A stretch of 64,000 nt of DNA from an uncultured virus (IMG/VR IMGVR_UViG_3300025816_000007) (taxonomy: Duplodnaviria > Heunggongvirae > Uroviricota > Caudoviricetes): IMG/VR virus record IMGVR_UViG_3300025816_000007. The stretch is one strand, 5' to 3'. Positions within the stretch are counted from its first letter, which is position 1. Each line of letters starts with the position of its first letter. Under the pieces are notes generated by a model. It searched no databases. It saw only the letters and a list, made by a program, of their open reading frames with translations, and was not told the DNA's origin. Of this stretch, positions 15,612 to 51,900 are shown in pieces. The translations under genes were made by a program, and so were the position numbers.

Positions 15612-15630
15612 AAAACAATTCATGGGACTT

Positions 15631-25358: not shown

Positions 25359-25939
25359 ATCTTCAACCTCTTAGCTATCGCAATAATGTCGAAATTAATC
25401 ATAGCAAATTCGTTAAAGGCTATTTGAGTGCCCCCCTCCGGCTCATAGGGCACGCCAATAGCAATTTTCAGATGATTTCCATCAATAGACTTCAATCCGA
25501 CAGGCGCTGGGGCCGAGTTATCAGGAGGGGCAATGCCGTGGGTAAGGACACGCTGACCGGCGTCACCTATAGACCAACCAACATTCGCAAAGGCCCCAAT
25601 TATTTGTAGGCCACCTGGCTGATGTGCGCGAATTATTCCGTCGCCAAATGCAATACATAAAACAAGGCCTGCCCCCTCAATAGTTGTAGTTCCTGTACCG
25701 TCTACATCTATGGATTCAGTTGTTATCAACCCAGCTCCAAAATCTAAATCAATGTCATCAACAGTTGCGGTGCTCCCAGCTAATACTGTTACCACCCCGT
25801 CTCCATCTACTTTGTACTCGCTTTCGTGACCTGCATCGATATTAATCATCCTCCCTCGCATTGCTACAAGAACTGTTCCATCCCCCCCGCCCCCGGTAAG
25901 GCCGCCTATGGTAAATGCATCTGAAAAACTCTGTGCCAT
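25355..25939 (-). CDS. Virion protein, FTxGG family paralog 2
   Basis: DAFTIGGL N-terminus; PYEPEGGTQI near the C-terminus. Confidence 0.65.
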   Translation of the reverse strand: MAQSFSDAFTIGGLTGGGGDGTVLVAMRGRMINIDAGHESEYKVDGDGVVTVLAGSTATVDDIDLDFGAGLITTESIDVDGTGTTTIEGAGLVLCIAFGDGIIRAHQPGGLQIIGAFANVGWSIGDAGQRVLTHGIAPPDNSAPAPVGLKSIDGNHLKIAIGVPYEPEGGTQIAFNEFAMINFDIIAIAKRLKI

Positions 25940-30699: not shown

Positions 30700-30919
30700 G
30701 TTTTACTATCAAGTTACAAAGTTCTTCTGCTACTTCTGATTTTTTCGGATACCAAAACAATGTTCTTTTCACCGGTTCATCTGTATCTCCAAAAGGCCCA
30801 ATATCTCCTCCGTCAAACTTATACTTCGATTTGAACAGTTCTTTTGGTAACTCCTGTTCCCACTCAAACGGATCTTCATCGTTTTTTATGACTTTAATTA
30901 TCGAAACGCTATGTATCAT
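30656..30919 (-). CDS. Hypothetical protein
   Basis: 87-aa coupled ORF. Confidence 0.55.
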   Translation of the reverse strand: MIHSVSIIKVIKNDEDPFEWEQELPKELFKSKYKFDGGDIGPFGDTDEPVKRTLFWYPKKSEVAEELCNLIVKHGYRATREYIPTID

Positions 30920-32466
30920 CAGTCTTTCCTCCTTTCCGCCTCTGCAAATATCTCTTGAATAGGTTTCGCTAAGATGATAGAGTGTGTCCTAAGAAGAGAT
31001 ACAGCATTCTCAACAGCCCCATTTAGTGCGGATTCTACAACTGCTAAAGGTTCAAACACTAGCATTGTCATAAGTTCCATTTCATCGACATTTACTCCCA
31101 AGCTCGGTTCTTTTTGTAGGTGTACTGTCACGTCCATAATATCCATACCTGCAGATTCAGCAAGTGTTTGAGGAATGATTAGTAAAGATTCAGCGAATGC
31201 CTTACGTGCTACTTCGACTTTACCCGTGTACTGTTGTTCACAGTTGAGTAGGTCATAAGACATCAAAGATTGAATTGTTCCAGCACCGGGCACCAACCTG
31301 CGGTCTTTTACAGCAAGATAAGCAACACCAAGAGCGTCCTCCATTGCTCTTTGAAATTCCTCTCCAGACTGTTCAGTTGGCGCTGGCATAATGATTGAAG
31401 CGGCTTGAATGTGTTCGCCTTTGATTGTCACGTAATCATTTACTGATTCAACAACCTCGACCTCGCCATGACCCAAGTCCTCTTCGTTTACATCTGCAAA
31501 ATCGCTTATGACATGGCAATCCATCGATGATGCTAGTTTGAGCATGTTGCTTCTTTTGATGTGCCGGAATGCTACAATTCCGTTTGTCCTCAATAGTTGA
31601 AGGACTTTCGAATCGATGTTCTTTTGGCAGAATATAGCTTTGACTTCATGTTTAACGAAGTTATTCACAGTATGTTCAATGAATTTCTGTTGTATTTCGA
31701 CGATTTCTGCGATTTTGGCTGGGTCGTTTAGAGTTACTTGCGCTTGAGGTGGGGCCAAGTCTTGCTCAATCAAAGCAACCTTTCCAGTCGTCTTAGATGG
31801 CATACCAGCCGTAGCGGGTGATTTTAGTAAAACAAGGCCTTCAATCAGTTCTGCATCATTTGTATTACCTGGTATTGTAAGAAGCATCATATCACTTGGT
31901 TTTGAAATCATAGCAGCACGTGAACAAATATCGCTTAGAACATCAACAAAGTCTTCTGCAGATTTACCAGTGATTGCCGTTCTTGCTGCGGCCCTTCCAG
32001 CTTCATACGGTTCTTTCTCAATACTGTGCGTCTTCGCAGATTCCAATGCCTCGCCTAAACCGAGCCTGTATCCCTTGATGATTGCATTTGGGTGAACTCC
32101 CCTTGAAATTAATTCGTCTGCTCGCCTCAATAGCTCCCCCATCACAACAATACATGTGGTAGTTCCATCGAATGCGTTTTGCTCTTGACTTTTCGCTACC
32201 TCAGCAATAATTGAAGCTACGGGGTCTTTGGTTTCCAAAGAACGGAGTATTGTTGCGCCATCGTTAGTGAGCACCTTATTTCCGATACGATCTACAAGCA
32301 TCATATCCATTCCTTTTGGACCCAAGGTGTGCCTAACTGCATCAGCCATTTCCATCGCAGTATCTACAATCCATCGTTGCGCCTCTCGGCCACTAATGAT
32401 TTTATTATCATCCATGAAACGGGGAAGTGTTTTGTCCCTATCAATGAAACGCTTAGTAAAAGCCAT
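30919..32466 (-). CDS. ths: Group II chaperonin (thermosome-like), divergent
   Basis: TLGPKGMD, TNDGATIL, DGTTT, GVHP..I..GY, TAITGK, FCQK.ID, VPGAG, IP.TLAE.AG, VFEP. Confidence 0.93.
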   Translation of the reverse strand: MAFTKRFIDRDKTLPRFMDDNKIISGREAQRWIVDTAMEMADAVRHTLGPKGMDMMLVDRIGNKVLTNDGATILRSLETKDPVASIIAEVAKSQEQNAFDGTTTCIVVMGELLRRADELISRGVHPNAIIKGYRLGLGEALESAKTHSIEKEPYEAGRAAARTAITGKSAEDFVDVLSDICSRAAMISKPSDMMLLTIPGNTNDAELIEGLVLLKSPATAGMPSKTTGKVALIEQDLAPPQAQVTLNDPAKIAEIVEIQQKFIEHTVNNFVKHEVKAIFCQKNIDSKVLQLLRTNGIVAFRHIKRSNMLKLASSMDCHVISDFADVNEEDLGHGEVEVVESVNDYVTIKGEHIQAASIIMPAPTEQSGEEFQRAMEDALGVAYLAVKDRRLVPGAGTIQSLMSYDLLNCEQQYTGKVEVARKAFAESLLIIPQTLAESAGMDIMDVTVHLQKEPSLGVNVDEMELMTMLVFEPLAVVESALNGAVENAVSLLRTHSIILAKPIQEIFAEAERRKD

Positions 32467-35400
32467 GTATGTCAATCATATCTGGTGGATTTTTCTTAGT
32501 TCTTTGGTTGATTTGTGAAGGAGACAGCATGTATGCCCTATATTTTGCTTGGAACTCTGGAATGGTTTTATTGAAATGGTTTGTTATGTATTTAGTAAGT
32601 TCAGAAGTCAGGTATGGTTCTTCACCCATTTTGTTCACAAAATTTTGTTCGGCTACATCGAATTCAGTTTCAATATCGCTTTCAAATTCTTCAATCACTT
32701 CAACCATATCTTCTAATTTTTCTTTCTTAGAGAACCTAAACCAGTCAATTCTATCTGCTATTATAGTAAAGAAATCTTTTACACCATGCACAGTAAACAT
32801 ACCATGCATGACTTTGAAATCGTCTGGACTTGTTTGCGATGGCTCCCAAGCAGCAGGGTGGGTGTGCATCCAAGCTTCACCGCCTTCTATCATCAATCCA
32901 TCAACATTCACGTAGTTATCTGCATTGTTGCCCTTCCTCCAATACAGGTGGCCGTCTTTTACCCAACCTTGGCCTTCACCAAAGTTTTGCATTTTTGCCG
33001 ATATCTGTTCAAAGAATTCGGTTGAACCAATAGGGCCCTCTAGTTTGTACTTCTTGTAAGATGTTGGAATCTTTGAATCTTCAATTGGTATATGGTCGTC
33101 CAAATACTGTTGAGCATATCTAGTTGGATTCAACAACAATTGACTAATTTTAACTGAATCGTATAGGTCATGGGTTTTGCCTCGTACTCTGATGAAGCCG
33201 GATTTATTTCCAAACTGTAACATACCCCTTGTTTCAACTCTTAGTCTTGGTTCGCTTTTCTTTGTAGGGAAGTGTTTCAAGATTGCTAAACCATCAATAT
33301 TCACTTTTGATTTAACATAGAAGTGCTTGCCACCAGTCTCAATAGAAATCACATAATCTGTGTTTGCATCGCCCCTACTTAGTTTGAAGCCGGCTGATTT
33401 TCTAAACATATTGATTCTGATGATATTGCCCATTTTTTTGTCAAGGGTTTCTCCAGTGGCTACTCCTTGCACATCTAATTCGGGTTTGCCTTTGATTACA
33501 GAAATTGTGGCATCTCTAACTACTTCATCTGTCACATCCATAACGAATTTACCCTCCGAAGGGATTGCTACTACTGGAGGATTGGCTTTAGGTGCATTAT
33601 TCCATTCGTCCCAATTAGGCACTCTGCCCTGTTTACTGCGCCAATCTCTTTTGCTGGTTTTGTAGCCATCAATTAGCTTAAACTCTTTACTCCAATCGTC
33701 CTCTTTAGCATTACCTTGACCTTTTTGATTGGTAGGCTTTTCCTTTTGAGCCTGATTCCATTTATTCCAATCCTGTTTATTTTTCGGCTTGAACTTATTT
33801 TTGAACTCGTTGTTCGTCATAAATTTACCATCAATCTTTCTTCTTTCCCTTGTATCAGTTTGGGAACCAGGCGCTATTGTTTTTGATGCGCCGGGGATGA
33901 TAGCTTCCATAATCGACTTTGTGACATCTGTTGAAAGTTTCATCTTTTGTGCTTTGGCTTCAACAAAGTCAGTAAGTTTTGTTGCTTTTATTTGAGCTTT
34001 AGAAGCCAATTGCCCTAGTGCCTTTTCTCGATCTAACTTATCTCCTTTCTTAGAGACATTGATGTTCCTGTACTTCAATTCTTTTTCCAAATCTTCATCT
34101 TCGGAAAAATCCCCTACGATGTGAAACTTTTGTAGTGCTTTGCTACGATTTAGTTTATTGCCCTTTTTGGGCTCATCTATATTGTATTTCCTAAGTGCCT
34201 CTTTGATTTCATTGTCAGTGCTATTTTCTGACAGCCCTGAATCAAACATAGCTACTATTTTTTTATACTGTTCATCAGTCAAATGGTTAATGTTTTTCTT
34301 TTTCCTATTGTTGTTCCAACCCGTAAAAGCCGATACATTTCCAGTTTGAATATACTTTACAACCTTATCAATGTCTTTGTTACCCTCAACGCCTATGTCT
34401 TTCAATTCTTTCCTTGCATCTTTCTCAGGTTCAAAGGGATTCATGATGGGTTGTTTTTCCGCTGACTCTGTGATTAAGTCTTGAATCAAGATAACTTCAT
34501 CATTCGTAAGGTGTTCTGCTTTTCTCAACAAAGCATCTTTTTTCCCCCTTTGAAGGCCGATAGTTGGTCTTTCGTCCATACCTGGTGGCAACCCAAATGT
34601 AAGAAAATCTGTAATAGTACCTGTTACCCTGTCTAATGTCTTTTTACGCAGGGTAAATCCTTTATCAATCATTTCTAACTCCATTATCTCTGGAAATACT
34701 AATTTTTTGTTCAATGGAGTCGAAAGGGGGAGCGAAATAGTGAATTGGTGATATCTTGCTCCTTCTGGCAATAAACTCGGTGGATTTGGTGAAACTCCCA
34801 ATGCGAAATCTGCTAAAGCTTCTGCTAAGTCCTCAACTAAATCAGTCCTAGTTTCATTTATCTCAATCAAGAAAGAACTCAAATCGTAAGATAGCCCCTT
34901 GTTTTGAATGAAGTGTTGTGTTTCATTAGCTAATTCAATGTATATTGAAGCGTCTGGAATTCTCTTTTGTATGTACTCAAATAGTTCAAGAGTATCCAAG
35001 TTGTCTTCATCTGTATGATATGGCCCATTATGAAATAATACAATGTCGTAGTCAGCCCATACAGGATAGTAAGGCGGGTAAGAATGTATATCGAATAACA
35101 TATCTGCTTGAGGCAAGGTATCATCTAGTGTTTTGTGGAACTCGTGATTTTCAGATTCAAGCCTGTTTAAGTCCAAGTCATCACGATCTATTTCGCCCTT
35201 TAGGAGTAATACAGGAACTCCTCTATTGTGAAGAGTGCTGTGTAGTTCATCTGCTAATGATTCGGATAACCAATCAGTATCGTGGCCGTCTTCTTTTTTG
35301 TCATCGAATGTATGTGGTGCAGTGATTATGATTTCGGGGTCGTATGGGTTATTGTGTGAAACAACCTCTTTGTCAGTCAGTAAAGATATCAGGGTACTTT

Positions 35401-35776
35401 TCGGCGCTTCGTCCGCAGCTCTCACTTGTTGTATATCTGATGTTGTGTAAGGGCTGCCATCTAAGGGGTGCAGCCTTGGTCTAATCTTTTTCCAATCGCT
35501 ACCCCTTACAACACCGGTAATGACCTGCTTTTCTAAATGGTATTCGAATATTTCTCCAGGATATTTATTCTCGAATTCCCATACATAACTTTTGGAATTG
35601 AATTGTTTTTTCGCCTCTCTTTTACTAGAATAAGCAATAGCACCGACAACACCATTCTGGTCTCGACGGAACATTTTACGAACAATCGGATTAACTTCGC
35701 CTCTAAGTTTTCGTCCTTTCGGCTTTTTCATCTTTTTCAAACGCATGATGGGGTTTGACCTTGGTTCGTGATTCAT
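32453..35776 (-). CDS. 1107-aa NP-delimited multidomain protein with Zn-hydrolase and JAB/MPN-like domains
   Basis: TAPH..DLNR..FDIHS..LIE (N-formylglutamate amidohydrolase-like) and WMHTHP...SPDD (JAB-like); 8 NP/NPP linkers. Confidence 0.75.
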   Translation of the reverse strand: MNHEPRSNPIMRLKKMKKPKGRKLRGEVNPIVRKMFRRDQNGVVGAIAYSSKREAKKQFNSKSYVWEFENKYPGEIFEYHLEKQVITGVVRGSDWKKIRPRLHPLDGSPYTTSDIQQVRAADEAPKSTLISLLTDKEVVSHNNPYDPEIIITAPHTFDDKKEDGHDTDWLSESLADELHSTLHNRGVPVLLLKGEIDRDDLDLNRLESENHEFHKTLDDTLPQADMLFDIHSYPPYYPVWADYDIVLFHNGPYHTDEDNLDTLELFEYIQKRIPDASIYIELANETQHFIQNKGLSYDLSSFLIEINETRTDLVEDLAEALADFALGVSPNPPSLLPEGARYHQFTISLPLSTPLNKKLVFPEIMELEMIDKGFTLRKKTLDRVTGTITDFLTFGLPPGMDERPTIGLQRGKKDALLRKAEHLTNDEVILIQDLITESAEKQPIMNPFEPEKDARKELKDIGVEGNKDIDKVVKYIQTGNVSAFTGWNNNRKKKNINHLTDEQYKKIVAMFDSGLSENSTDNEIKEALRKYNIDEPKKGNKLNRSKALQKFHIVGDFSEDEDLEKELKYRNINVSKKGDKLDREKALGQLASKAQIKATKLTDFVEAKAQKMKLSTDVTKSIMEAIIPGASKTIAPGSQTDTRERRKIDGKFMTNNEFKNKFKPKNKQDWNKWNQAQKEKPTNQKGQGNAKEDDWSKEFKLIDGYKTSKRDWRSKQGRVPNWDEWNNAPKANPPVVAIPSEGKFVMDVTDEVVRDATISVIKGKPELDVQGVATGETLDKKMGNIIRINMFRKSAGFKLSRGDANTDYVISIETGGKHFYVKSKVNIDGLAILKHFPTKKSEPRLRVETRGMLQFGNKSGFIRVRGKTHDLYDSVKISQLLLNPTRYAQQYLDDHIPIEDSKIPTSYKKYKLEGPIGSTEFFEQISAKMQNFGEGQGWVKDGHLYWRKGNNADNYVNVDGLMIEGGEAWMHTHPAAWEPSQTSPDDFKVMHGMFTVHGVKDFFTIIADRIDWFRFSKKEKLEDMVEVIEEFESDIETEFDVAEQNFVNKMGEEPYLTSELTKYITNHFNKTIPEFQAKYRAYMLSPSQINQRTKKNPPDMIDIHGFY
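32492..33130 (-). other. JAB/MPN-like metalloprotease domain
   Basis: EGQGW...HTHPAAWEPSQTSPDDF fits E..HxH..S..D. Confidence 0.55.
34787..35350 (-). other. N-formylglutamate amidohydrolase/Zn-carboxypeptidase-like domain
   Basis: ITAPH, DLNR, DIHS, LIEI. Confidence 0.6.
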
Positions 35777-38700
35777 TTCAATTCCCCCGTTTTTTCAGTC
35801 TTGGCTATTGTATTTAATTGCTCCATAACAGTTTGAAGCCATCTGTTAGTGAGGGGTGCACGCTTTTTCAATTCGGCTAATCCTGTGCCTATCCCAGCGA
35901 CAGGAATCACTATTGCGTCATATCCCCCATTGAATACACGCAAGAAGTCCTCCGACATCATCTTGACGGAGTTTTGCATATGACTATCATTCCAGAACTT
36001 TCTCGAACTGGCCTTTGTCCTCACTCCTATGGCATTCGGTTCATCACGGATTACCGCTTGACCGCCCTTCCCTGTTCTTTTTTCATTATCGCCAAAGATG
36101 AAACCGTAGTTTGGATATTGCCTCAATAGTTTTGAATCATACATCGTGCCTGTCACGATGATTGGAGGGAGCATGACTCCTGTATTCTTTGGAGGATTAG
36201 GCCGTATCAAGTGTTTTGCTAATTCTTGCGGGATTTTCCAGCCTTTCTTCTCTGCCTCAATCAAACGTGCTGCTAGTTCGGGGTGCTCCAAAGGCCATTT
36301 TGGATTTACATGCTCTTGATAGAATCCTCTTGAGTTTAGATTTCTTCGCTTTTTGCCATCAGCGCCTATCTGTTCTATCAAAGCCCCAATAGTTATTGAA
36401 TCCGTCAAATATTGCCCATGACCCCCAGGATATTCTATATCTTCCGGAAGGTCCCCAGGAGGATTAGGTTTTATTTGACCCCACTTTCCTGTTCCTTCAA
36501 GTGGAACTTGCTCTATTCTTAGATCTTGAGCGTTGATTGATTTATCTTCACGCCATTTCTTGAAAGATGGTTGTTGTAATACTGGTGCCCTAACTGTTCC
36601 TACATACAACAACTTCTTACCTTTCAATCTGAATACGGGGCAATCTTTGAAGTTGATATTACGATAAAGGAACTCCCCGACATACTTTGGCTTTACCATC
36701 TTTAGCATTCCTTTGCCCCTCACATCATGGGTTTCTCTTACTGAGTTAGAAACTACCCTACCGCCAAGCTTCATGTTAGGGGCATCGATTTGGTCTTTGC
36801 TCAATAGTTCAAGTAACTCGCCTTTCTCTTTGTCTGTTGAACCAATGACTGATTTACCCGCATAAATGAAATCACCATTAGGAAGCATCCAAGCTAAAGC
36901 GCCTCCACCAACAATAGATTCTTTGTTGCCGCCCTCTTTTCCGTGATAGTAGCCTATGATGGCTAAGTCTGCTGTGCCTTTCATCTTGATTTTGATTGAT
37001 TTGTTATCGCCATCAAATCTTAGAACCAAGCCCTCAAAGTTTGGCTCACTCATACTTTCCTCCCACAATTCAAGGACTTCCTTCACTCCCCCATCACTCT
37101 TCAACATTGGAACGCTCATGATTGATGGCAAGTCTTCACCAGCAAACAGGTTGTCCAGTGCCTCCATTCTTTCCCCATAAGGCGTGTCGATGTAATCCCT
37201 ACCGTTTAGTTCTAGAATGTCGAAGGCAGCAAAGCGGATTTGTTTCTGTCTCTCCATTGTTTTCGGAGCTACAATTATACTGCTAATCTCTTTCAACGAT
37301 AATGTTGCCCCTCCTTCATCAACAGCATACAATTCACCCAATATCTGTGCTGAATCAATCCCCTGTGATTGCAGATAATCAGTCATTTCATCCGTAATGT
37401 GGAAATTTCTTCTCCACCGGCCTCGCTTATTCCATACAACCGATTCATTTCCATTAAAGTGAATCAAAGAGCTGTCACCATCAACTTTCAAAGATACTGT
37501 ATATGGCCTATTATCATCAGCATACTTGTCCAGGAATCCCTCATGCACAGTTCCGTCTTCGTCAATAACAGTTCTCAAAGCTATTTCTTTACTGAATGAT
37601 TGCTTTTTCCATGCTTCTGCCTTATCTGGCATATCAGAGAATACACCATCTAGCCATTGATTGTGATATTTGGTTTTACCTTTATCAGTTTGAATACCCA
37701 TATCCAGTGCGCCATCGCCCTCAAAGACAGGAATATTCCTATAAAACTGCACATAGTCTTCGGGAGACACACTTGGGGGATTTTCCATGGCGTAATTGCT
37801 TTCGGAATTCCGATATGTTACAGACCCGCTAAATTTGGTTTGAACTATCAAGCCCTCTTTTTTCATGATACTGAGTATTCTCCCAATCTGCCGAGCATTC
37901 GGATGCATACGGTATCCAGCATTCTTCAATCGACCTTCAAGTGATTTTGCGGTGAATTCAATAGATGGATCTAAGTCTTTCACAAATCTTCGGACAATGG
38001 AAGTTTTGTCGTGGTGCGCTGGAGGATTCGCCATCGGTCTATTCCTCCACTTCTTGAATTCAGAGGCAATCATTTTCACATTCTTAGGTAATTCCCCCCT
38101 CTTGTTGGCTGCTATGAAATCGAAGTTCATGTTCTGGAATGTGGATAGCATACCTGTTCCGGCCTTCACCCTGCTTTCTATCTCTTCCTCAGTATGAACG
38201 CCTCTAGCAGTTAGAAGTTGCTTTCTTCTATCTTCACCCATTCCTGTTCTGATGAATACGCTGTATGTCTTATTGGGGAATGCAGCACGCATTCTTCTTA
38301 TACCCTCGAAGTTCGCATCAATAATTACTGGTTTTGAAATTGCAAAGTCTGATGCTCTGCGGCCATAGTATTCTCCATTCTTTTGTTTGACCCATAGATT
38401 CACTTCACCTGCAGTAAACTCCCCGTTCTCAATCATTTCCTCGAACTTATCTTTAGTGATAAACACGCCATCAATTCCTTCTTTCTCTTTAGGGCGCTTC
38501 TCACGTGTCATGTAAGATGGTATGATTTGCCCTTTCAGTTTCTTAGCTAACGCTTGAGCCATAGTTGATTTGCCCGAACCCGATGGACCACTTATTGTTA
38601 GAATGTCACCATACAAAGGTGTGAACTTTGGTGGGTTGTCCCAAATTATCCAGTCTGGACTGATGTTTGAGCAAAACTGCCCTGCGTTAAATTCTCCTTT

Positions 38701-41700
38701 AGGGTCATATGCGAGATTAATGTTTAACCATCCAGGAGGACTGTATTCACCACAAGGAGCATCATACATCCACCACCCTCGCTCCACTATTCTTTGAGGC
38801 GCATATCCCTCTGCGTAGGTAAGTTCTGGTTTTGCTGAAGGAATCAGTTTGAAAGCAGTAGAAGGGATTGTTGGAGGATTTATCATCGGCCTAACGCCAT
38901 ACTTCTCTTTCTCTTTACGACCAACCCATGCAACATTAGGACACTCGCCCATCTTTTCGCCCGTCACTTGAAGTGCATATCTCCAAGGGTCATGCCCCCA
39001 TATCCATAGACCTAACAGCTTACGCTTTGGTCGGCCTCTGTCGTCTAAGTAAGCACCCTGCATTCCTCTATGGCGTGTATTGAAGTTGATTTGCTTTTGA
39101 GCCCATTGCCAAAAGTCCAGCATTATGTCTCTGCCTCTGTCTTTTGATTTACGCTTAGACCATTCTTTAACAGGAGTCTCTTTCATTTTCAAGATTGCTA
39201 AAGCTGAATCTCTACCAGATGAGATCCCTGCTTCTTTAGCCTCATCTCTACTCAACCCTGCTCTTTTGTTGCCCCATTCAGAATCATAGAAGGTTTGTAG
39301 CTCATGTTTTGTCATGTTAACAAGTTCGAGCCATCTCTTACGGATCTCACGCTTCTTCTCTGTCGTCAATTCAGAACCTTTCTTTGGAATACCTGGAGGG
39401 TTTGATATTGTACTACCTTGCTCTTTGTAGCAGAATAGGCAACCACTAATACATAGTTTGTAGGAACCGACTGTACAAGGAGTGGGTTTTCTTTCCCTTT
39501 CATGCCACGCCATCGGCTCCCCTACCGAGGGTGCTTTCATTCCACCATGCCAAAACTCACAAGGCTTCCCGTCTTCCCCCTTAGTACACATCTTATCATG
39601 GAAGTGTTTGTCTGCGACTGTTTTTGCTTTTTCAAGAATCTTTTTTTCTTCTTCACGCCTTTTTCCAGTATATTCAGTTTCCCAACTCCACCTTTGACTG
39701 AAATTCTTCCGCATGTACTGTTTTACATATTCATCATGGTTTTTCCTAAGTGATGATAATTCTTCATGTAATCCTTCTTCATCTGTATACCATTCAGCTC
39801 CTTCCGTCACCCCTGGGTCGAATTGAAACACTGCGGGCGGGAAGTTCCCATGCTTCTTCTTCGGCAAAACTGGATTCCTTTTATCCGCAGGTGTTTTTTC
39901 TTCAAGTTTCTTCCACAGTTTCTTGATTCTCGGATGCCACGGTATTCGCTCGCCCTTCTTAGCACGTACTTTTTTGCGAGCCTGTTCACGGATTACTTGC
40001 TTTCCTGAGTCTGTCCTCATCAAAGCCTTCACCACTGGAGCAGGGAGGCAAAGGCGGGGCTTGCCACTTGCTGTTTGTGTCCCTTCTGCACCGCATTTCT
40101 GCGAATAATCAATTTCGCCCTTGTTGTTGACTTTGATTGAACGCCAGTCTTGGGTAGTCCAACCGTATGATTGGTAGCCCGGTGCCATTGGGTTCTTTTT
40201 GTCAGCGTAGAACGGAGCGTGTTCTTTTTGTTCTCTAAAATTCCACCAGTTGTTGTAAGGGTCATCAAGCCAACTACTGATGTAGTTTCCGTCCCAATTG
40301 GCATTCAATGATGCGTATTGGTCGCTCGATGGGACAGGGAAACGCTTTTGCCCCCAAGCGTGAGAATGTTTATGTTTCATTTTCATTTTTTCATAATCCT
40401 CATGGAATTGTTCTTCCGTGTATTGCACTGGGCGCAAGAAGTAAGACGGTATCGGGTCCATCACCGCATAGTAATGCCCATCAACGGAGAAGTAATCCGG
40501 TATGCGTTCTAATCGTTTCAGCGTTTTGTCTGCTGCTTCTGAATCGAGTTGTAGGATTACGATTGGGTCTGCTGGATTTTTATTTCCAAGCCATTTGACT
40601 ACGCCAAATCTTATAGCTACATCCAAGGAATCCGTAAAAGTTGGGTAATCTTCCTTGAAGTTGAACCATCTTGAGGCGAATATCTCCCTCGCTTTTGAAA
40701 GCGTAGTTCCGTGATAGTATGCATTATCTAAAACATCAGGTGCTGGATTTCTCTTTATCATCCAATGAGGATAACCAGTCCAACCCCTGTCCATGGCTTT
40801 GATGTAGTCGTGTGGAATGATTGGATTATTTTTAGTTCCAAACGGCTTTGTGTTAGGCCTTAATTCCACATACCACTGGGGCGGTTGTTGTTTGTCCAAT
40901 TTCATTTCTTTACGGTTTCGTCTAAGGTTGTATTTCTTCGGAACCCTAATACTTTGAATGTGCCATTTGCCTGTTGAAGATAATTTACCTGCTATCGCTT
41001 GAACGCCTTTGTATTTGTCAAATCTCCTTCTCCAACCATCCATGTGAATAGCTTTCCTACGATCTTCGGGGTCGTCCATTTGGAATGTCCTGAATGCCGT
41101 TCCATCAAATGCATCTTGGTCGAACTCCCATGGCACCTTTTGGCGGTGGGCAGTCCAGTTATCCGTAGGAGGATTTGATTTGAAAGCTGATTCAGACCTC
41201 TTCTGCCAATCTAATGAAACCGAATCTAGGTCTATAGGACCACCAGATGCCCATGTGTAACAGGTTCTAGCGGAATGGCATTTGAAGTGGTGCATCCAAC
41301 AGTAACCCAATTGCCCTTCTTTGTCAGATGTTTTTCCTGGCATGCAATCTTTCATTCTTGGACTGATATCGAAGGCAATGCAATTGCTACAATTCGAGTT
41401 TTTAGCGACTTGTGCATCAGTGTTCCACCTTTCTCCATATCGGACCCAATAATCTTCATCACTAAGATTAAGCGGACCATATTGAATGTGTGGTGCTTTT
41501 ACTGCGGCATCTCTGTTTTTGGTATTTACTTCAAGATTTTGAGTAGCCATTGGGCAAGTTGATGGAGGATTCAAAGATAGGTTCAGCAAATCAGAAACTG
41601 ACATCGACCCTGGTAAATCTAATTCTTTTGTTGGCGGTTCTGGTCCGTTTTTCTTCAATTGTGAAAGTGGAACTTGAAGTGAAAACGATTCTTTGACCGA

Positions 41701-44142
41701 GTATCTAACTTTGCTTTTCTCAAACATATCGTCAAGGCCATCGATTGTGGTCCCTAACGAAGTAATCACTGGATTCTTTAGCATAGGTAGTTTTTTCTTA
41801 CCCACTTCACGTAAATATGTCCTAACCGGAACCGCATCTGTAAATGTTGGTATTTTTATGCGCTCGTATTTGAGTTCTGTAGGCTCTACCCTTCCAATTC
41901 CCTTCTCATAGAAGGCTGGTTTCGGTAGGCTGTCGCCTTTGAACTTCCTCATCTCCGTATAATGTTCATAGATTGGTTGGCTTTCTTGTTTAGCAAAACC
42001 TTTGAAAGAAACATTCAATGTTAATTGTGCCTTAACTGGATCTATTAGCAAGTAGCCATCTTTGTACCCTGGTTGTAAAGCATGGTCCATCAGGTAGTCG
42101 AGCATCCTTCTTTTTGCTTCTGTAGTGAATCCTCTAAATGCGTTGGTAGTTCCAATAGGTACAAACGCCTCCACTGTTTTTGATTTACCATCAATTTTTA
42201 CACTCTCTTTTGAGATTAGAGCTAGAGCCACGTTTCCTACCAAATTGTTTTGAGGATTTTTGCCCTCGATGTCAAACGCAATAATTGTTGCATCTACCTG
42301 CATATCACCGTATAGATGCAAAGGTGATGCATTTTCGAATGTCATAAGAAGCTTGTTTGCGTACCCGGATTCCAATTCATCGCTAATCATTTCTGAGTAA
42401 TACAAATCAGAGTTTCTGTTAGACAACTCTACAAATTTAGCTGACTGGCTTCTGCAAGACTTAACTGTTGAAAGGGCAAGTGGGCGCAATAAATTGAAGT
42501 CTTTACCGTCTAATGCACCATATACCCTAACTTCAAGTTTAGAAAAGATTGCAATTGAATCCTCTTCATTAGTAGGTATTTCATCCATATCTACAATATA
42601 ATCAACTAATTCAAAGTCTTGATTGTCTCTTGGAGTCAAAACACCTTTAGCAATAATTTCTTTTATCCCCATAGATTCACAATAAGCAGCGAATTCTCTT
42701 GTTTGTTGGATATTTGTTATTGCATTTTCTCCATTGACGGCAAGATAACATTCGCCTCGATTGTAACTTAATATACACTCATAGCCAAACGGAATAGAGA
42801 ACACTTCAAGTGCGTTAATCAAATCATCAACTGTGCCTTCTTTAACTGCAGATGTTTCTTTCCTCATTTCAATCCATTTTGTTTTCATAGGATTCATTTC
42901 TGCTGGTTGATATTTGGTGTCCTTTGCTAAGTTTACACTTGATAAGAAATCGATTACTCCTGGAATATAAGTGCCTTTTCGATATTGAACTACTTGAGGG
43001 TGGTCGTCGTAATCAGTATCAAAAGATTCGGCATCATATACAGGAAGTAATACTCTGCCACTTTGCATTGAGGAAGGAGCTAAATCATGTGAACCTTCAA
43101 ACGGTCTGTTTGATGCTGTTTTTGCCCTTGCAGGTGCAATGTCCAAGCTAAGAGGCAATAGCATAACATCATTAGATCTTGTCGTAAATGACTCTTTACT
43201 TATTTTCAATTCGTACAGTGGCAAGTCAATGTCACGGTATGGTACTTTACTGTTTACTGCTTGAGAACCAGATGGTTTACCAATGCTGCCTAAGAAGTCA
43301 TAAGCATCATTTCTGGATACCAAACCTAAAGGTCCGCCTCCTATGAAAATAGCAGCAGTAGAACCCCATGAGCATACTAATGTCAACACTTTCATTTCTT
43401 TTTCAATCCTTTTTGATAGCCTTAAACTGCCATCGATTGCTTTCTTTGAAGTCAGGCCAATCGCACGTAGGCAAACTAATTCAGTTGCTTCGTTTGCTTT
43501 TACAGTTTCAAAACAAAGACCAGTTGTGTGATTGTTAAGCCCGATGCTCATTGCTGGAGCAAGTGTTTCATGTCTGCCCCTAGAGGAATCGAAAATAACC
43601 TTCTTTGTGTTAGGAATCAAAGCATCAATCGAAGGAAATACAGAATTAGCATACGCCTCCCTCATTTTTTGTTGCCTATTCACGAATTCCTCATTAGAAC
43701 CTTCTCGTTCTGCATTGATTGAAGTTATTGGGCGTGGCTCAATCAACGCAGATAAGTCAGGGCCAATCGTTGAACCTCGCTTTTCTGCACGATACAATAG
43801 AATCGCTTGGGCTTGGAAAGCATTTGCCGCCTGTTCTAAAGTTGCGCCTGGATAATCTCTGTCGATGATAATTGGCTTTTGGCCGTCAGCATTGATTTCT
43901 TTTGCTGCTTTTCCTTCTATCTCAACTCCAATCGGCAGTATTTGGCCTCCCAATCCACCCTTGCCGACTAGTTTAGCAACCCAACTGCGTATTGATTTTG
44001 TAAGTAATGGCCCTTCAACACCCTTACGCATTACCAAATTCCTTGCATATTTTGAGAATTGCTCCTCTGTTAAATCAGGAATTTTTTTGATGTATTGCTC
44101 TTTTAGTATGTGAGCCGCTACAGCATTCATTGGAGGTATCAA
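35773..44142 (-). CDS. 2789-aa NP(P)-delimited polyprotein-like protein
   Basis: About 14 modules separated by NP/NPP; includes ligase, guanylate kinase, ART-like and DUF3140-like domains. Confidence 0.85.
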   Translation of the reverse strand: MIPPMNAVAAHILKEQYIKKIPDLTEEQFSKYARNLVMRKGVEGPLLTKSIRSWVAKLVGKGGLGGQILPIGVEIEGKAAKEINADGQKPIIIDRDYPGATLEQAANAFQAQAILLYRAEKRGSTIGPDLSALIEPRPITSINAEREGSNEEFVNRQQKMREAYANSVFPSIDALIPNTKKVIFDSSRGRHETLAPAMSIGLNNHTTGLCFETVKANEATELVCLRAIGLTSKKAIDGSLRLSKRIEKEMKVLTLVCSWGSTAAIFIGGGPLGLVSRNDAYDFLGSIGKPSGSQAVNSKVPYRDIDLPLYELKISKESFTTRSNDVMLLPLSLDIAPARAKTASNRPFEGSHDLAPSSMQSGRVLLPVYDAESFDTDYDDHPQVVQYRKGTYIPGVIDFLSSVNLAKDTKYQPAEMNPMKTKWIEMRKETSAVKEGTVDDLINALEVFSIPFGYECILSYNRGECYLAVNGENAITNIQQTREFAAYCESMGIKEIIAKGVLTPRDNQDFELVDYIVDMDEIPTNEEDSIAIFSKLEVRVYGALDGKDFNLLRPLALSTVKSCRSQSAKFVELSNRNSDLYYSEMISDELESGYANKLLMTFENASPLHLYGDMQVDATIIAFDIEGKNPQNNLVGNVALALISKESVKIDGKSKTVEAFVPIGTTNAFRGFTTEAKRRMLDYLMDHALQPGYKDGYLLIDPVKAQLTLNVSFKGFAKQESQPIYEHYTEMRKFKGDSLPKPAFYEKGIGRVEPTELKYERIKIPTFTDAVPVRTYLREVGKKKLPMLKNPVITSLGTTIDGLDDMFEKSKVRYSVKESFSLQVPLSQLKKNGPEPPTKELDLPGSMSVSDLLNLSLNPPSTCPMATQNLEVNTKNRDAAVKAPHIQYGPLNLSDEDYWVRYGERWNTDAQVAKNSNCSNCIAFDISPRMKDCMPGKTSDKEGQLGYCWMHHFKCHSARTCYTWASGGPIDLDSVSLDWQKRSESAFKSNPPTDNWTAHRQKVPWEFDQDAFDGTAFRTFQMDDPEDRRKAIHMDGWRRRFDKYKGVQAIAGKLSSTGKWHIQSIRVPKKYNLRRNRKEMKLDKQQPPQWYVELRPNTKPFGTKNNPIIPHDYIKAMDRGWTGYPHWMIKRNPAPDVLDNAYYHGTTLSKAREIFASRWFNFKEDYPTFTDSLDVAIRFGVVKWLGNKNPADPIVILQLDSEAADKTLKRLERIPDYFSVDGHYYAVMDPIPSYFLRPVQYTEEQFHEDYEKMKMKHKHSHAWGQKRFPVPSSDQYASLNANWDGNYISSWLDDPYNNWWNFREQKEHAPFYADKKNPMAPGYQSYGWTTQDWRSIKVNNKGEIDYSQKCGAEGTQTASGKPRLCLPAPVVKALMRTDSGKQVIREQARKKVRAKKGERIPWHPRIKKLWKKLEEKTPADKRNPVLPKKKHGNFPPAVFQFDPGVTEGAEWYTDEEGLHEELSSLRKNHDEYVKQYMRKNFSQRWSWETEYTGKRREEEKKILEKAKTVADKHFHDKMCTKGEDGKPCEFWHGGMKAPSVGEPMAWHERERKPTPCTVGSYKLCISGCLFCYKEQGSTISNPPGIPKKGSELTTEKKREIRKRWLELVNMTKHELQTFYDSEWGNKRAGLSRDEAKEAGISSGRDSALAILKMKETPVKEWSKRKSKDRGRDIMLDFWQWAQKQINFNTRHRGMQGAYLDDRGRPKRKLLGLWIWGHDPWRYALQVTGEKMGECPNVAWVGRKEKEKYGVRPMINPPTIPSTAFKLIPSAKPELTYAEGYAPQRIVERGWWMYDAPCGEYSPPGWLNINLAYDPKGEFNAGQFCSNISPDWIIWDNPPKFTPLYGDILTISGPSGSGKSTMAQALAKKLKGQIIPSYMTREKRPKEKEGIDGVFITKDKFEEMIENGEFTAGEVNLWVKQKNGEYYGRRASDFAISKPVIIDANFEGIRRMRAAFPNKTYSVFIRTGMGEDRRKQLLTARGVHTEEEIESRVKAGTGMLSTFQNMNFDFIAANKRGELPKNVKMIASEFKKWRNRPMANPPAHHDKTSIVRRFVKDLDPSIEFTAKSLEGRLKNAGYRMHPNARQIGRILSIMKKEGLIVQTKFSGSVTYRNSESNYAMENPPSVSPEDYVQFYRNIPVFEGDGALDMGIQTDKGKTKYHNQWLDGVFSDMPDKAEAWKKQSFSKEIALRTVIDEDGTVHEGFLDKYADDNRPYTVSLKVDGDSSLIHFNGNESVVWNKRGRWRRNFHITDEMTDYLQSQGIDSAQILGELYAVDEGGATLSLKEISSIIVAPKTMERQKQIRFAAFDILELNGRDYIDTPYGERMEALDNLFAGEDLPSIMSVPMLKSDGGVKEVLELWEESMSEPNFEGLVLRFDGDNKSIKIKMKGTADLAIIGYYHGKEGGNKESIVGGGALAWMLPNGDFIYAGKSVIGSTDKEKGELLELLSKDQIDAPNMKLGGRVVSNSVRETHDVRGKGMLKMVKPKYVGEFLYRNINFKDCPVFRLKGKKLLYVGTVRAPVLQQPSFKKWREDKSINAQDLRIEQVPLEGTGKWGQIKPNPPGDLPEDIEYPGGHGQYLTDSITIGALIEQIGADGKKRRNLNSRGFYQEHVNPKWPLEHPELAARLIEAEKKGWKIPQELAKHLIRPNPPKNTGVMLPPIIVTGTMYDSKLLRQYPNYGFIFGDNEKRTGKGGQAVIRDEPNAIGVRTKASSRKFWNDSHMQNSVKMMSEDFLRVFNGGYDAIVIPVAGIGTGLAELKKRAPLTNRWLQTVMEQLNTIAKTEKTGELK
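36466..37782 (-). other. lig: ATP-dependent DNA ligase domain
   Basis: Motif I KVDG, III ILGELY, IIIa FAAFDIL, IV EGLVLR, V KIKMK, then an OB-fold region (TADLAIIGY). Confidence 0.85.
38029..38637 (-). other. gmk: Guanylate kinase domain
   Basis: ISGPSGSGKST, SYMTREKRPKEKEGIDGVFI...FEEMI, YYG, SVFI. Confidence 0.85.
38881..39402 (-). other. DUF3140-like domain
   Basis: LVNMT..EL, SGRDSA, F.TRH, IWGHDP. Confidence 0.6.
40195..40749 (-). other. ADP-ribosyltransferase-like domain
   Basis: YYHGTT...A..I, TFTDS...A..F, VILQLD, IP..F pattern. Confidence 0.5.
41572..42894 (-). other. Degenerate DNA-ligase-like domain
   Basis: Collinear by eye with the active ligase (VDATIIAF/TADLAIIGY; LVGNVALAL/IVGGGALAW) but lacks KxDG. 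Confidence 0.5.
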
Positions 44143-48266: not shown

Positions 48267-48923
48267 TCAATGTACTAACCACTTTAGCGTCATGCTATCC
48301 GCAGTTCGATCTTCAATATCCCAATCCCCGCCAATCAACATGAGAACTGGCTTATACCCTGGGGGCGGTACTGTCACGTATAATCTTGGGCGTTCTTTTG
48401 TGATGTTTCCGTCATCGTCCTCGCCAAAGTGGTGAATGTATGTGTCCATTTCGCCCTTTTTATTTGTTTTACCGGACGTGTAGCCAATGAACGGGCAAGT
48501 TCCCTCTCCAATGGCTACTAACATGGAATGTGGCCCTCCTGAATCATCTGGAAGCCAAACCTCTTGTGTAATCATTTCCTTTGGATCTACACCGTTGAAT
48601 TCTTTGTACAATTTTATGGCGTGGTCGAAGTCTTTTTCTTCTTGTGTTGTGATTTTCTTAGACTTTGATTTCTTTCCTTTGATTGGGTTCAACTTTGCTT
48701 TGATTTTTGTCAAAGGCATCATCCACTTTCTAGTAATCGTCTTTGGCGCTTTGCCATCTTGAAAGTTCTTCACATCGCTATCCCAAGCTCTCAATCCCCT
48801 GCACAAAACTTCAAACATATTCAAGTCGTTTACTTTGTTTGAAGGCCCTGTCAAATGTACTTCAACAATATCATCTTCATCTTCATGGATTGTTAATTGC
48901 CAGGTTGAACGCTTCTTTGGCAT
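48267..48923 (-). CDS. Putative virion protein with internal NP motif
   Basis: KLNPIKGKK, then A.KLY.EF.G..P...IG...Y...YIHHF...RPRL...LIGG domain. Confidence 0.6.
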   Translation of the reverse strand: MPKKRSTWQLTIHEDEDDIVEVHLTGPSNKVNDLNMFEVLCRGLRAWDSDVKNFQDGKAPKTITRKWMMPLTKIKAKLNPIKGKKSKSKKITTQEEKDFDHAIKLYKEFNGVDPKEMITQEVWLPDDSGGPHSMLVAIGEGTCPFIGYTSGKTNKKGEMDTYIHHFGEDDDGNITKERPRLYVTVPPPGYKPVLMLIGGDWDIEDRTADSMTLKWLVH

Positions 48924-48926: not shown

Positions 48927-51900
48927 TTACACCGCCTTGTATTTAGCCCCACAGCCTTTACATCGGTAGTGTGGGCCTTTGTTCATTTTAACAACTGTTC
49001 CTTTGCATTGGATACCAGAAATTATACGGATACACCTTTGGTTAGGTTTTGCGCTACCTTTTACCTTAGATGAAATAAATTTTCTTGCTTTATCTAATGT
49101 TGGCAGTGTTTTGTCATAGGCTTCTACATTCCACCCGTTCTCGACTTTCTTGATTATCACGCCTTTGTATTTACGCTCTTTTGAAGGATTATTCTTAATC
49201 ACCCCTGCTGGGTTCGGATTAATTTCGCTGACATTGTTTGGAACGATGTGCCCTGGGAAGAAAATGCTAACTAATACTTTCTCGCCCTCACGCCACAGGT
49301 AAACTGTTTCGCCCTCTTTGTTAGCTAATGCGACAGCGGCACTTTTCGCTAAGGTGTAAGAATCATAGGAGTCAGTTCTGCCTTCTTCCATTGGGTTGCT
49401 TTTTGGAGGGTTTTTCTTTTTTCCTCCAGATTCATTCCAAACTTCTGCGTTACCAAGTAAAACAATTATTGAGTTGCCTTGGCCGTATGTGAAAGGTTCT
49501 ATTCTAATATTCTTTAGAGTGTTGCCGCCCAATGCTTCTGCTTTCTTTCTAAGTTCTTCCATCAGCAGTTTTTGACACTGTGCAACCTTTTTCTCTATCG
49601 TTTTAGATCGGCCACCAATCAAGTCTCGGCCAACAGCCATGATATCTTTTAGGATATTAACACCCAATACTACTTCTGCAGTAATATGACCTACTTTACC
49701 AGATGGGGGATTTCTAAGTAATCTTCGCATACCCCCAAGTCTTTTTATTTGAAGGTCTTTTAACAAATCGTCTTTCTCTTTATCTTTTTTATCTTTATCT
49801 TGAAGGTCGACTTCCTTGTACGAAGCAATTTCCTTCACTGTATCAAAATCAAGGCCAAATAAGTTATCATCTATCATCAAAGCATCATAAACCTCATCTT
49901 TGACGGGCTGTACCCCCGTCAAATCTTTGTAATTTTCGACTGCTTCCAAAATTTGTAAATAATATTTTTCAACATCGTTCGTTTTGCCTGGTTCTCCAAA
50001 TCGGAATGAATCATCAGCCACGTTCTCGACTAGGGTTTTACTTAGTTGTTCAATCTGCCCTTTGAAATCCGATGCGTGGTCTTCCATCTTTTTAGTGGCA
50101 CCATTGATTTCCTTTTCTTCTTCATTGCCAAAATTACTTTGAGCAACATCGTCCAACATGCGAGATAATATACTTACTAATATATTTGTAGCATTCAGGA
50201 ATTCACCCCCATTCTTTTTGATTTCTTCTTCTGCTTGGCTTTGTTCTAGTTTTGTCTTTTTTAGTTCAAGCATAAGGTTTGCTATTTGGGGTTTTTCACC
50301 AACACTCCTTTTCATTTCTTCTGTTGTACTATCTCGAATCAATGTCTTTAAACTCCTCAAAGGTGTTTTTCCCCCCTCTGTGTAAGGCAAGATTGAACGG
50401 GCTCTTCTACTGGCTGTTCGCTGGTCGGTCAATAGTAGTGCAAGAATAGTCATTTGAACTACATCAATGTCGTAATTGAAAAGTTCTTTTGCACGTGCAG
50501 ATATAAGATACAATAAATCTGATAGGATTACTTGCCTATTTTTCCCATATATCATATCCCAATATTCATCGACTATTTTCATAGTTGCTATCATCCATCT
50601 TCGATCCCAACCAATCGGCTTGATTTCAAAAGCTGGCAGTTGAATAGGAATCAGTAGGAAAAGGCTCTTGTCTACTCTTTTGGCTGTCGGGATAATTGGA
50701 TACGCTAGGCCGTTTTTAACCAAGTATTCAACCAATATGTCCTGATTATTCCTTTTTCCCTCAGTACCAGGAATGGGTGTCAACACTCCATCATCTATTT
50801 CGAATATATTTCTATCGGGGTCAATTCTTTCTGTGTATTTCATCGTTGTTGTCATTCGGGTAAAAATTTGTTCTAGTTCTTTGCCATCAAAATTAGCACC
50901 ACTAGCAGGTGTCTTAATTGCTTCATTATATGAGTCTATGAAATCTCCGCCCGTCTTGATAGCCTTTAGCGCAGCATTTTCCAATGCTTTAGCGGCTTCC
51001 CGCCTATTGAAATCAAATGTTGCCAGGAATCTGCCGATTTGTTGTTGTTTTTCTGTTGCTTTTAGCACCTTTCTGTCTTCTTTATAGTTTAGGAGATTTC
51101 TCACAAATTCATCTATATATGAACTAATATCTTGAACATTCAAGGCTTCTTTGGTATCGTAAATCAAGTATGCTGTCGCCCCATTAAGAATATTGTCTGG
51201 TGTCGGCAACATAGAATTGGTGAATAATTCGGCATCTTTTACAGCGGACATTCCTGTCATGATTGATTGCATGTAATGTAGGTTGTTTTCTCTTACATCA
51301 TGGTACGCCCTAATCATGTTAGAAAAGTTAGCAATCAAAGTCGGGTCATTGAAGAAGGGTTTTGCTTGCAACCTTTCCAATAGACGCTTTTTGTTTTCAC
51401 CTTCCGCATCAATTCCTAAATCCCCAAGTGCTTGTTTCACGGTTGCAGATAGTTTTTTCTTGGCTGCCTCTTCTATGCCTTGACCCCCAGTTGGCAATGA
51501 ACCGACTATATTTGCTGCCAATAGCCTAGATTCTGGTTCCATGTGAGGCACACGTATTTTTGAACTCAAACCTACTTGTGTTTTCAATGATTCTTGCAAA
51601 GCTACCTCCCTTGGAGTCAAATTAAGCATTTTCCCATACATAGCATCGGGAATAGAATCCTGAATGTACTTATCTAGTTCTTTCACTGGACTTTTGACGG
51701 CCAAGGGAATAGTTGGCGCTGGAGACCTCCTAGTAAATCTTCCAGCATTCCTCCCTTCTCTGATTGTAATGTGTTGGTCTTGTCTGCTTTGAATCAATTC
51801 ATTAACAAGAACGCTAATGTCTTTTGAATAAGAAGCTGAATTCAGCCCTAGTGCTTTACCCTCCTCTGTCAAAATTCTTTGAATCCTCCTCATTGTATCT

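Follow-up and report, generated by a model that had tools for sequence, protein, structure and literature searches.

Polyvalent proteins of phages and conjugative elements join many unrelated domains in mosaic architectures and have been proposed to be processed by an embedded peptidase, and JAB/RadC domains occur among their modules (PMC5512222, in the portion drawn on here). They are the closest concept to the element analysed here, a giant open reading frame (ORF) in a 64,000-nucleotide stretch of DNA from an uncultured virus of the Caudoviricetes (IMG/VR record IMGVR_UViG_3300025816_000007; the whole stretch is called the window below). Like the polyvalent proteins, this ORF specifies one virus-encoded chain with many unrelated enzymatic domains (about 14 units, the criterion in that portion of PMC5512222 being two to fifteen) and is mosaic among relatives. 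Unlike them, it has Asn-Pro (NP) at its junctions, whereas the same portion of PMC5512222 shows no universal inter-domain motif; it comes from an archaeal-type virus, whereas the elements treated there are bacterial; the zincin-like (MPTase) peptidase and MuF head anchor typical of them are not found in the window protein by Pfam; and the module set here is a predicted LigD-like core, guanylate kinase, ligase, DUF7831 and DUF5824. The novelty here is an array that resembles polyvalent proteins but belongs to an archaeal-type virus and bears a universal mark of two residues at its junctions.

African swine fever virus pp220 and pp62 are cut at Gly-Gly-X and adenovirus precursors likewise at a short consensus, the products being structural core proteins in a fixed order and the enzyme a known cysteine protease. 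The giant ORF would resemble these polyproteins in that a double-stranded DNA (dsDNA) virus obtains several mature proteins from one ORF with one short motif and one viral protease, but differs from them in its shuffled enzyme modules, its Asn-Pro motif and a protease that is a candidate only. Literature searches returned no description of Asn-Pro-punctuated polyproteins, nor of polyproteins in archaeal tailed viruses, and the word 'polyprotein' is absent from the main texts of PMC5434244 and PMC11706807.

Our analyses support NP, or Asn-Pro-Pro (NPP), as a specific mark of module junctions in the giant protein, in which about 13 modules delimited by NP come after a conserved N-terminal core; four of the resulting units have Pfam support. 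The protein contains 18 NP, nine of them within NPP, compared with 8.0 NP and 0.48 NPP expected from its composition. This is a strong excess: in 20,000 residue shuffles at least 18 NP arose 22 times and at least nine NPP never, and NPP and NP are the most over-represented tripeptide and dipeptide, respectively. By comparison, a control set of 152 ORFs of at least 500 amino acids (aa), drawn from 79 unrelated viral loci, contains 7 NPP in all versus 9.3 expected, and none has three or more. An earlier note on this DNA had read NP(P) as a protease cleavage or capsid-targeting signal at domain junctions and had listed 13 sites. All 13 are present, 1-7 bases from where it had placed them, and five more NP occur at aa 629, 790, 1106, 1189 and 2613. 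The junction-mark part of that proposal stands: 12 of the 13 listed sites are homology breakpoints relative to related proteins, as is the NP at aa 1106, and NP is found at 13 of 13 junctions of the window protein. The thirteenth listed site, at aa 417, is not a breakpoint, is not kept in relatives and lies between two predicted domains of the N-terminal block. The database copy of the protein (P0002, 2,785 aa) begins four codons later, with ATG at 44130.

A search with the first 857 residues yielded the giant relatives P0004-P0008, of 2,289-4,211 aa, and P0003, a truncated near-copy of P0004; NPP occurs 9, 16, 7, 10 and 4 times in the five giant relatives, compared with 0.3-0.7 expected in each. 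Pairwise BLASTP among the six giants gave 242 distinct internal alignment ends, which were compared with random sites in 2,000 trials. Fifty-seven per cent of these ends lay within 5 aa of an NP versus 7.6% of random sites (trial maximum 18%), and 69% within 10 aa versus 14% (trial maximum 26%); the median distance to NP was 3 residues versus 48, and NP ranked first among all dipeptides within 10 aa of the ends. After merging, NP was present within 10 aa of 47 of the 53 breakpoints with at least three ends, 13 of the 20 with two and 9 of the 38 singletons, which are mostly ragged ends within modules. The result was replicated on 16 carriers of the family of the adjacent 1,107-aa gene, in which 39% of 507 ends lay within 5 aa of NP versus 7.9% for random sites (maximum 13%).

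Pfam envelopes cover 3,305 of the 18,748 residues of the six giants (17.6%), yet by hand count only 3 of the 132 NP lie inside them, and of the 55 NPP none does. When the six giants were cut at every NP and the pieces clustered, 55 of 55 NPP separated pieces from different families, and the 25 NP within a piece family included no NPP. The junction class, whose size of 107 is inflated because pieces without relatives were scored as different, has a hydrophobic residue or Pro at -3, Lys or Arg at -2 (54/107), N-P, and then Pro (55/107) or V/L/I/A. The residues preceding the Asn travel with the upstream module and the residue following NP with the downstream module.

The modules are supported as independent, mobile units, several of which are stand-alone proteins elsewhere. 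All six giants share a block of about 860 aa, a 115-aa module and a 25-35-aa peptide, after which the string of modules differs in each protein. In relatives, modules have been exchanged, added and rearranged precisely at NP, and no fixed architecture was found: module order is different in every relative, with mosaic order and content in P0004-P0008 and in loci L001, L083 and L084. The NP at the C-terminal end of the aa 1582-1754 module is kept whatever module comes next, and relatives have extra modules inserted between the 25-aa peptide and the module preceding it. One such insertion, at NP in P0007 (aa 990-1180, between the 115-aa module and the peptide), carries HETGH...HHCTNDCIM...CPTC, a motif resembling that of archaemetzincin-type zinc proteases. 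In L083 (547-10175) and L084 (6395-16110) the giant is split into two genes, one for the N-terminal block with a GNAT-like module at its end and the other for the cargo array, with its own ribosome-binding site; the 25-aa peptide opens a separate gene in L084, and the homologue of the 1,005-aa gene there houses the YHGT-motif module (aa 1133-1316). L001 is more distant; its modules are scattered among other giant ORFs and here, too, have NP on their flanks. At least 600 matches to the Cys-rich module (aa 859-989) were obtained in IMG/VR; in 79 of the 80 loci kept it lies in ORFs of 135-580 aa (mostly 135-240 aa) and in one, L001, in a polyprotein, and its depositors' label in four phage records is 'high potential iron-sulfur protein'. 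Caulobacter, Rhizobium and Ruegeria phages have DUF7831 as a stand-alone gene whose alignment with the window protein starts at the NPP of aa 2649.

Selection for the junction mark acts at the protein level, since the codons of NPP vary: 20 different triplets encode 46 sites, which belong to 14 genes and five viruses, the commonest triplet being AAT CCT CCA (nine times), with all four Pro codons at both positions and a CCT CCA preference that is also seen at other Pro-Pro pairs. No conserved nucleotide word was found at the junctions, and a DNA-level junction motif was rejected because of the codon variation. The in-frame, cassette-array look of the ORF and the movement of modules between genes would suit a nucleic-acid or translational signal, that is, a recombination target for cassettes or a 2A-like 'stop-go' site; 2A peptides end in NPG/P, and Pro-Pro bonds form slowly on ribosomes. 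We nevertheless regard any signal of this type as very improbable. Besides the 20 triplets at 46 NPP sites, the context upstream of the junctions is unlike D(V/I)ExNPGP, the C-terminal consensus of 2A peptides, NP is followed in half the junctions by V, L, I, A or K, the window protein has no NPG, and to our knowledge 2A operates on eukaryotic ribosomes only.

The giant ORF belongs to a same-strand run of large genes overlapping end to end (753, 1,012, 757, 1,005, 218, 1,164, 2,789 and 1,107 aa, and then a thermosome gene), of which the order 757 / 1,005 / 218 / 1,164 / giant / 1,107 is kept in metagenome relatives. The 1,107- and 1,005-aa genes are built like the giant ORF, and modules move among these carriers. 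NPP occurs at aa 331, 732 and 1096 of the 1,107-aa carrier (3 versus 0.17 expected) and twice in the 1,005-aa carrier (versus 0.10 expected). The 43 homologues of the 1,107-aa carrier, which are partly redundant, contain 241 NPP versus 8.6 expected, and their varied added modules include guanylate kinase, DUF5754, DUF5824, PAP2 and ligase. K[LR]NP is conserved in the 218-aa protein, near aa 89, and the protein's C-terminal domain is fused behind NPP in L001.

The C-terminal part of the 1,107-aa carrier contains a module that is probably JAMM/MPN-like. The motif HTHP..WEPSQ.SP[DE]DF..HG is present in 42 of the 43 homologues, and in 16 of 16 aligned sequences (numbering of a 375-aa piece) E202, H239, H241, S251 and D254 are invariant, matching what we take to be the JAMM/MPN+ metal site, E ... 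HxH ... S-x-x-D. Equally invariant (16/16) is N151/P152 of the same piece, the NP 883 junction before the module, and the L001 polyprotein also holds the module, likewise flanked by NP. In the AlphaFold2 (AF2) model of this part of the carrier (pLDDT 80.7), NP 883 falls in an inter-domain loop and NPP 1096 in a low-confidence tail. A VIA wide structure search with the module returned almost exclusively JAMM/MPN chains in its top rows, at Z of only 6.0-4.0; the best match was P. furiosus JAMM1 (Z 6.0, root-mean-square deviation (rmsd) 3.6, 105 aligned), followed by Rpn11, BRCC36, RadC, AMSH, CSN5, AfJAMM and Cap3. Neither the C-terminus of the 1,107-aa protein nor the 218-aa neighbour has sequence relatives in the PDB. 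An almost invariant, probably JAMM/MPN-like module in the carrier adjoining the giant ORF is new here and, as the sole conserved protease-like element found, we put it forward with low confidence as the candidate processing protease. Such a role at Asn-Pro, if true, would be new for that family.

Processing is a plausible alternative to a plain linker on account of NP-bounded leaders and tails, the 25-aa unit, conservation at the protein level and the JAMM-like neighbour. The second gene of L084, which has a Shine-Dalgarno-like GGAGG, starts MPKK-NP-IMPR and so retains KKNP at its N-terminus; the 461-aa neighbour likewise has NPP right after the leader MAGNQLLLI; the 1,107-aa carrier starts MNHEPRS-NP, and most of its full-length homologues end in NPP plus a conserved tail of 9-13 residues, ..[IVL]xG[FL][FY]. 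NP beside protein ends has nothing there to link and thus points to processing rather than to a linker. Among the 55 window genes NP occurs in the first 20 residues of seven and in the last 20 of six, versus about 2.6 expected each, which is suggestive only. The two AF2 models place the junction NPs either in loops connecting domains or in disordered tails. T4 internal proteins and Alt have a capsid-targeting leader that is removed by the prohead protease, and if short terminal peptides were likewise removed here at a consensus site, the leaders and tails bounded by NP would be accounted for; the window differs in that neither a prohead protease nor a scaffold or capsid gene was identified in it.

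From these patterns we infer cleavage, a scissile bond and a protease. That Asn-Pro is both recognised and cut, separating the modules, is the best-supported reading, and we hold it at roughly even chances. The giant ORF would then be a viral polyprotein of the polyvalent-protein kind, with an N-terminal core and variable self-contained modules between which stands Asn-Pro, usually Asn-Pro-Pro and often with a basic residue at the second position before it. A single protease would cut the chain in trans at Asn-Pro into separate proteins, and a new module would become expressible once inserted in frame with Asn-Pro on each side. The same Asn-Pro grammar would serve at least two neighbouring carrier genes, and the enzyme could be the JAMM/MPN-like module next door in the 1,107-aa carrier, a module that has NP on one side and NPP on the other. 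A broader version is more tentative and falls somewhat short of even chances: a plug-and-play polyprotein system of a marine archaeal dsDNA virus, in which any NP-flanked module in the carrier genes would be released by the JAMM-like protease or by self-cleavage.

Several observations weigh against cleavage at Asn-Pro. Five of the 18 NP of the window protein are not at junctions, and NP also occurs inside folds, as in the conserved GKNPQNG at aa 629. NP is not obligatory, since 6 of the 53 well-supported breakpoints lack it; in P0006 and P0007 the kinase and the Cys-rich module are joined without NP, and P0007 has N-G where P0006 has N-P. The dipeptides PP, KK and PK are also raised within 10 aa of break-ends (46%, 36% and 31%, versus 69% for NP), as part of the NP consensus. 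The giants are mutually related (P0006 and P0007 are close, and P0003 and P0004 nearly identical over the first ~1,135 residues), and the counts are therefore not independent events. For the JAMM-like module, a Z of about 6 is under the VIA caution line of 8, Foldseek gave nothing at E <= 0.001, no Pfam family (JAB, Prok-JAB and RadC included) was found at E <= 1 and no NCBIfam match was obtained; its spacer has 9 residues where we take 7 to be usual, and known JAMM enzymes cleave after Gly-Gly tails, not at Asn-Pro. Searches for proteases by Pfam, PHROGs and NCBIfam found none.

In a rival reading Asn-Pro(-Pro) is an uncleaved joint, a structural hinge or insulator made of a helix or strand stop and then a stiff proline step, and the protein is a single beads-on-a-string enzyme array, as many phage polyvalent proteins are taken to be. 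The junction NPs do lie in short loops, 2-10 residues off domain edges, some junctions have no NP, no protease is proven, and some polyvalent proteins are delivered unprocessed (PMC5512222, in the portion drawn on here). We consider an uncleaved joint unlikely, though a serious contender: ordinary linkers vary freely, whereas here one dipeptide is kept while its flanks vary, as with N151/P152, and NP is kept at protein termini and around the 25-aa peptide, where there is nothing to insulate.

Cleavage at Asn-Pro could also proceed without a protease, the Asn side chain attacking its own bond to Pro (asparagine lyase), perhaps slowly or when triggered, for example inside a particle. FlhB and YscU autocleave at NPTH, and uncatalysed Asn-Pro cleavage is slow, which counts against such a route. 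The Asn-Pro bond is scissile in RsgI, with reovirus mu1 and aquareovirus VP5 described as analogous, and the known cases need a conserved folded turn at Asn-Pro (PMC10328401, in the portion drawn on here). The invariant part of the junction motif is exactly N-P, the same dipeptide as in these proteins, two of which are viral, and Pfam and PHROGs revealed no conventional protease. The autocleaving proteins, however, have a single site in a conserved catalytic fold, whereas here dozens occur in loops that join unrelated domains; unrelated modules flank them, and the two AF2 models place the sites in loops or disordered tails with no conserved activating fold. Self-cleavage thus strikes us as improbable. 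Among proteases, Pro-Pro endopeptidases cut Pro-Pro bonds, as far as the account of them drawn on here goes. Their preference is VNP/PVP, so that a cut within x-N-P/P-x would fit the NPP form; they differ in being secreted Firmicutes enzymes, no M34-type domain was found in the window, and the second Pro is missing from about half of the junctions.

Table. Giant ORF, its modules and predicted folds, and the associated carrier and neighbouring genes (positions in the window)
Feature	Positions	Strand	Residues	Remarks
Giant ORF	35773..44142	-	2,789 aa	Uninterrupted; TTG start at 44142
Conserved N-terminal block	41572..44142	-	aa 1-857	Present in all relatives
AEP / LigD polymerase-domain-like fold	42922..43731	-	aa 138-407	Predicted structure
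ATP-dependent DNA-ligase-like fold (nucleotidyltransferase + OB)	41692..42888	-	aa 419-817	Predicted structure
First junction, LSL-NPP	41563..41571	-	aa 858-860	Conserved end of N-terminal block
Cys-rich module	41176..41568	-	aa 859-989	Stand-alone protein of ~140 aa in many viruses
Module	40828..41172	-	aa 991-1105	Always follows the N-terminal block in P0001, P0004-P0007
25-aa conserved peptide, IIPHDYIKAMDRGWTGYP...	40750..40824	-	aa 1107-1131	NP on either side in every giant
YHGT-motif module	40195..40746	-	aa 1133-1316	ADP-ribosyltransferase-like, a lead only
Module	39877..40191	-	aa 1318-1422	
Module with Cys-rich C-terminus	39403..39873	-	aa 1424-1580	Shared with P0005-P0008
Module	38881..39399	-	aa 1582-1754	Weak DUF3140 similarity, E 0.081
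Module	38638..38877	-	aa 1756-1835	
Guanylate kinase module	38029..38634	-	aa 1837-2038	Pfam PF00625 at 1848-2014, E 5.6e-15
Small module	37783..38025	-	aa 2040-2120	Common to P0008
ATP-dependent DNA ligase module	36466..37779	-	aa 2122-2559	PF01068 E 2.2e-10 and PF04679 E 8.3e-4
Module	36199..36462	-	aa 2561-2648	
DUF7831 module	35776..36195	-	aa 2650-2789	Pfam at 2667-2771, E 3.2e-28
Downstream carrier gene	32453..35776	-	1,107 aa	Start overlaps the stop of the giant ORF
JAMM/MPN-like module (probable)	32531..33034	-	aa 915-1082 of 1,107-aa carrier	E..HTHP..S..D; between NP 883 and NPP 1096
218-aa protein	48267..48923	-	218 aa	Best conserved in the neighbourhood, 56-75% identity
Upstream carrier gene	48927..51944	-	1,005 aa	YbjQ_1 domain, aa 751-833, between NPP 745 and NPP 845
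Thermosome-type chaperonin	30919..32475	-		Directly downstream of the polyprotein genes; Pfam E 5.6e-105

The Pfam domains of the guanylate kinase, ligase and DUF7831 modules lie within their NP-bounded intervals, with margins of about 10-90 residues. The earlier note had named four modules filling such intervals, of which the guanylate kinase and the DNA ligase were borne out by Pfam. The former also matches NCBIfam guanyl_kin (E 8.1e-23, under the equivalog cut-off), and the latter, with Pfam domains at 2211-2375 and 2417-2534, matches NCBIfam ligase models too. The two other names were not confirmed: the DUF3140 similarity is below Pfam's cut-off, and the module called ART-like has the YHGT motif, a non-significant profile match to RNA 2'-phosphotransferase (E 0.32) and no match in a single-sequence search of the PDB. 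The DUF7831 module is an addition to that list.

The N-terminal block belongs to a rare family, with 21 matches among 1.84 billion representative proteins and no relatives in IMG/VR (single-protein or profile patterns), GTDB genomes or GenBank phage records. No family was detected in it by a sequence-only search of Pfam, the sole match of a PDB profile search lay outside the block, and a protein atlas search gave a score of 0.84, a lead only. A comparison of the block alignment with the ligase module by hhalign matched only the true ligase module trailing in one aligned sequence and was uninformative on the block. The AF2 model of the block (17 sequences; pLDDT 77.9, pTM 0.70) is LigD-like in its predicted fold, a primase-polymerase fold followed by a ligase fold. 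In VIA-align, aa 138-407 gave Z 11.0-11.4, rmsd 3.5-4.4 and 200-215 aligned residues with 2r9l, 3pky, 6r4t and 5dmu, the structures matched being the LigD polymerase domain and primase Pri1, and aa 419-817 gave Z 12-13.9 with ligases over about 280 aligned residues; Foldseek matched the block to archaeal ATP-dependent DNA ligases at E 1.7e-10. Residues 832-857 are disordered in the model, immediately before NPP 858, and the block ends in [LA][ST][LM]-NP in 8 of 8 relatives with an NGPEP anchor, the NP lying 19-23 residues past that anchor.

The block thus resembles bacterial LigD, the non-homologous end-joining ligase, in carrying an AEP fold and then an ATP-dependent ligase fold on a single chain, but differs from it in showing no detectable sequence similarity and no conserved motif-I lysine or AEP acidic residues. 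No conserved motif-I lysine (KxDG) was present in the aligned stretch, and the Asp of 'SLDI', the AEP acidic residue, is not conserved (D/H/F/Y). Since neither residue is conserved, as judged from alignment columns rather than by superposition, the block is likely to be a non-catalytic scaffold or DNA binder. The LigD-like fold predicted for these conserved 857 aa, apparently without the catalytic lysine, is also new here.

An archaeal host is likely on sequence grounds, and the earlier note's assignment to an archaeal virus is reasonable given the archaeal best match of the thermosome, an RNA polymerase subunit H match and Shine-Dalgarno-like leaders, which precede 23 of the 55 window genes. 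For the chaperonin, archaeal thermosome models are best in NCBIfam (329 bits versus 226 for CCT), and it may help fold the giant products. NCBI files one relative under a 'Euryarchaeota archaeon' metagenome-assembled genome and others under 'Marinimicrobia'; the GenBank phage set held no relative. The part of the note's proposal that invoked capsid targeting, or loading of cargo into the virion, is unsupported: the window yielded no recognisable capsid, portal, terminase or prohead protease, and the N-terminal block is LigD-like in its predicted fold, not a head protein.

Other window genes were noted in passing. A 255-aa P-loop protein (29750-30517, +) has a homologue in L001; as a packaging ATPase it was set aside, with only non-significant HerA and STIV B204 rows (E 0.03-0.2), a likeness that, if real, would hint at a tailless, membrane-containing rather than head-tail virion. 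Adjacent 301-aa (25940-26845, -) and 194-aa (25355-25939, -) proteins share a C-terminal PYE.EGG.Q... motif and are therefore taken as paralogues; an atlas search for the pair as capsid proteins was uninformative (TM <=0.36). The 461-aa protein (28021-29406, -) begins MAGNQLLLI-NPP and has about 13 copies of a very basic unit, AAAKKAAATRKRNA, followed by a Gly-rich hydrophobic half (DNA repeat of 144 base pairs (bp) x3.3, 28795-29277); it may be a DNA-condensing or membrane protein. A 382-aa protein (26857-28005, -) has a basic N-terminus, hydrophobic stretches and nine tandem NP units, NPANPANNPANNPANNPVNNPVNNPANNPA, at aa 267-297 (12-bp DNA repeat x6.8, 27118-27198), which, were NP a cleavage site, would offer several sites in a row. 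NP is not enriched in the 753-aa protein (61733-63994, -; 6 versus 11.5 expected), whose Gly/Ala/Pro/Met/Asn-rich repeat corresponds to a 24-bp repeat x9.6 at 62247-62486. A 137-bp tandem repeat (29-483; 3.3 copies, 93% matches) lies mostly upstream of the first genes, and a large serine recombinase (14787-15722, -; Resolvase and Recombinase domains, E 2.8e-34) is a possible integrase. An opposite-strand arm (+) comprises an RNA polymerase subunit H/Rpb5-like ORF and two glycosyltransferase genes (6738-7235, 2256-4748 and 5076-5867).

Until now, polyproteins have been a strategy of RNA viruses, of retroviruses and of a few large DNA viruses of eukaryotes. Should Asn-Pro truly mark processing, the strategy would extend to prokaryotic dsDNA viruses, with an unusually simple, portable two-residue signal. 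This would imply either a protease of new specificity or an Asn-Pro self-cleavage independent of context, which could become a tool for expressing several proteins together in archaea and bacteria. It would also provide an annotation rule for the giant ORFs of marine viral metagenomes, namely to cut at NP and annotate the pieces. The plug-and-play reading, if true, would make this the first polyprotein strategy with a universal cleavage mark in a prokaryote virus, a protein-level counterpart of a gene-cassette array, and the apparently inactive LigD-like core together with the shuffled set of enzymes would point to a function in an arms race.

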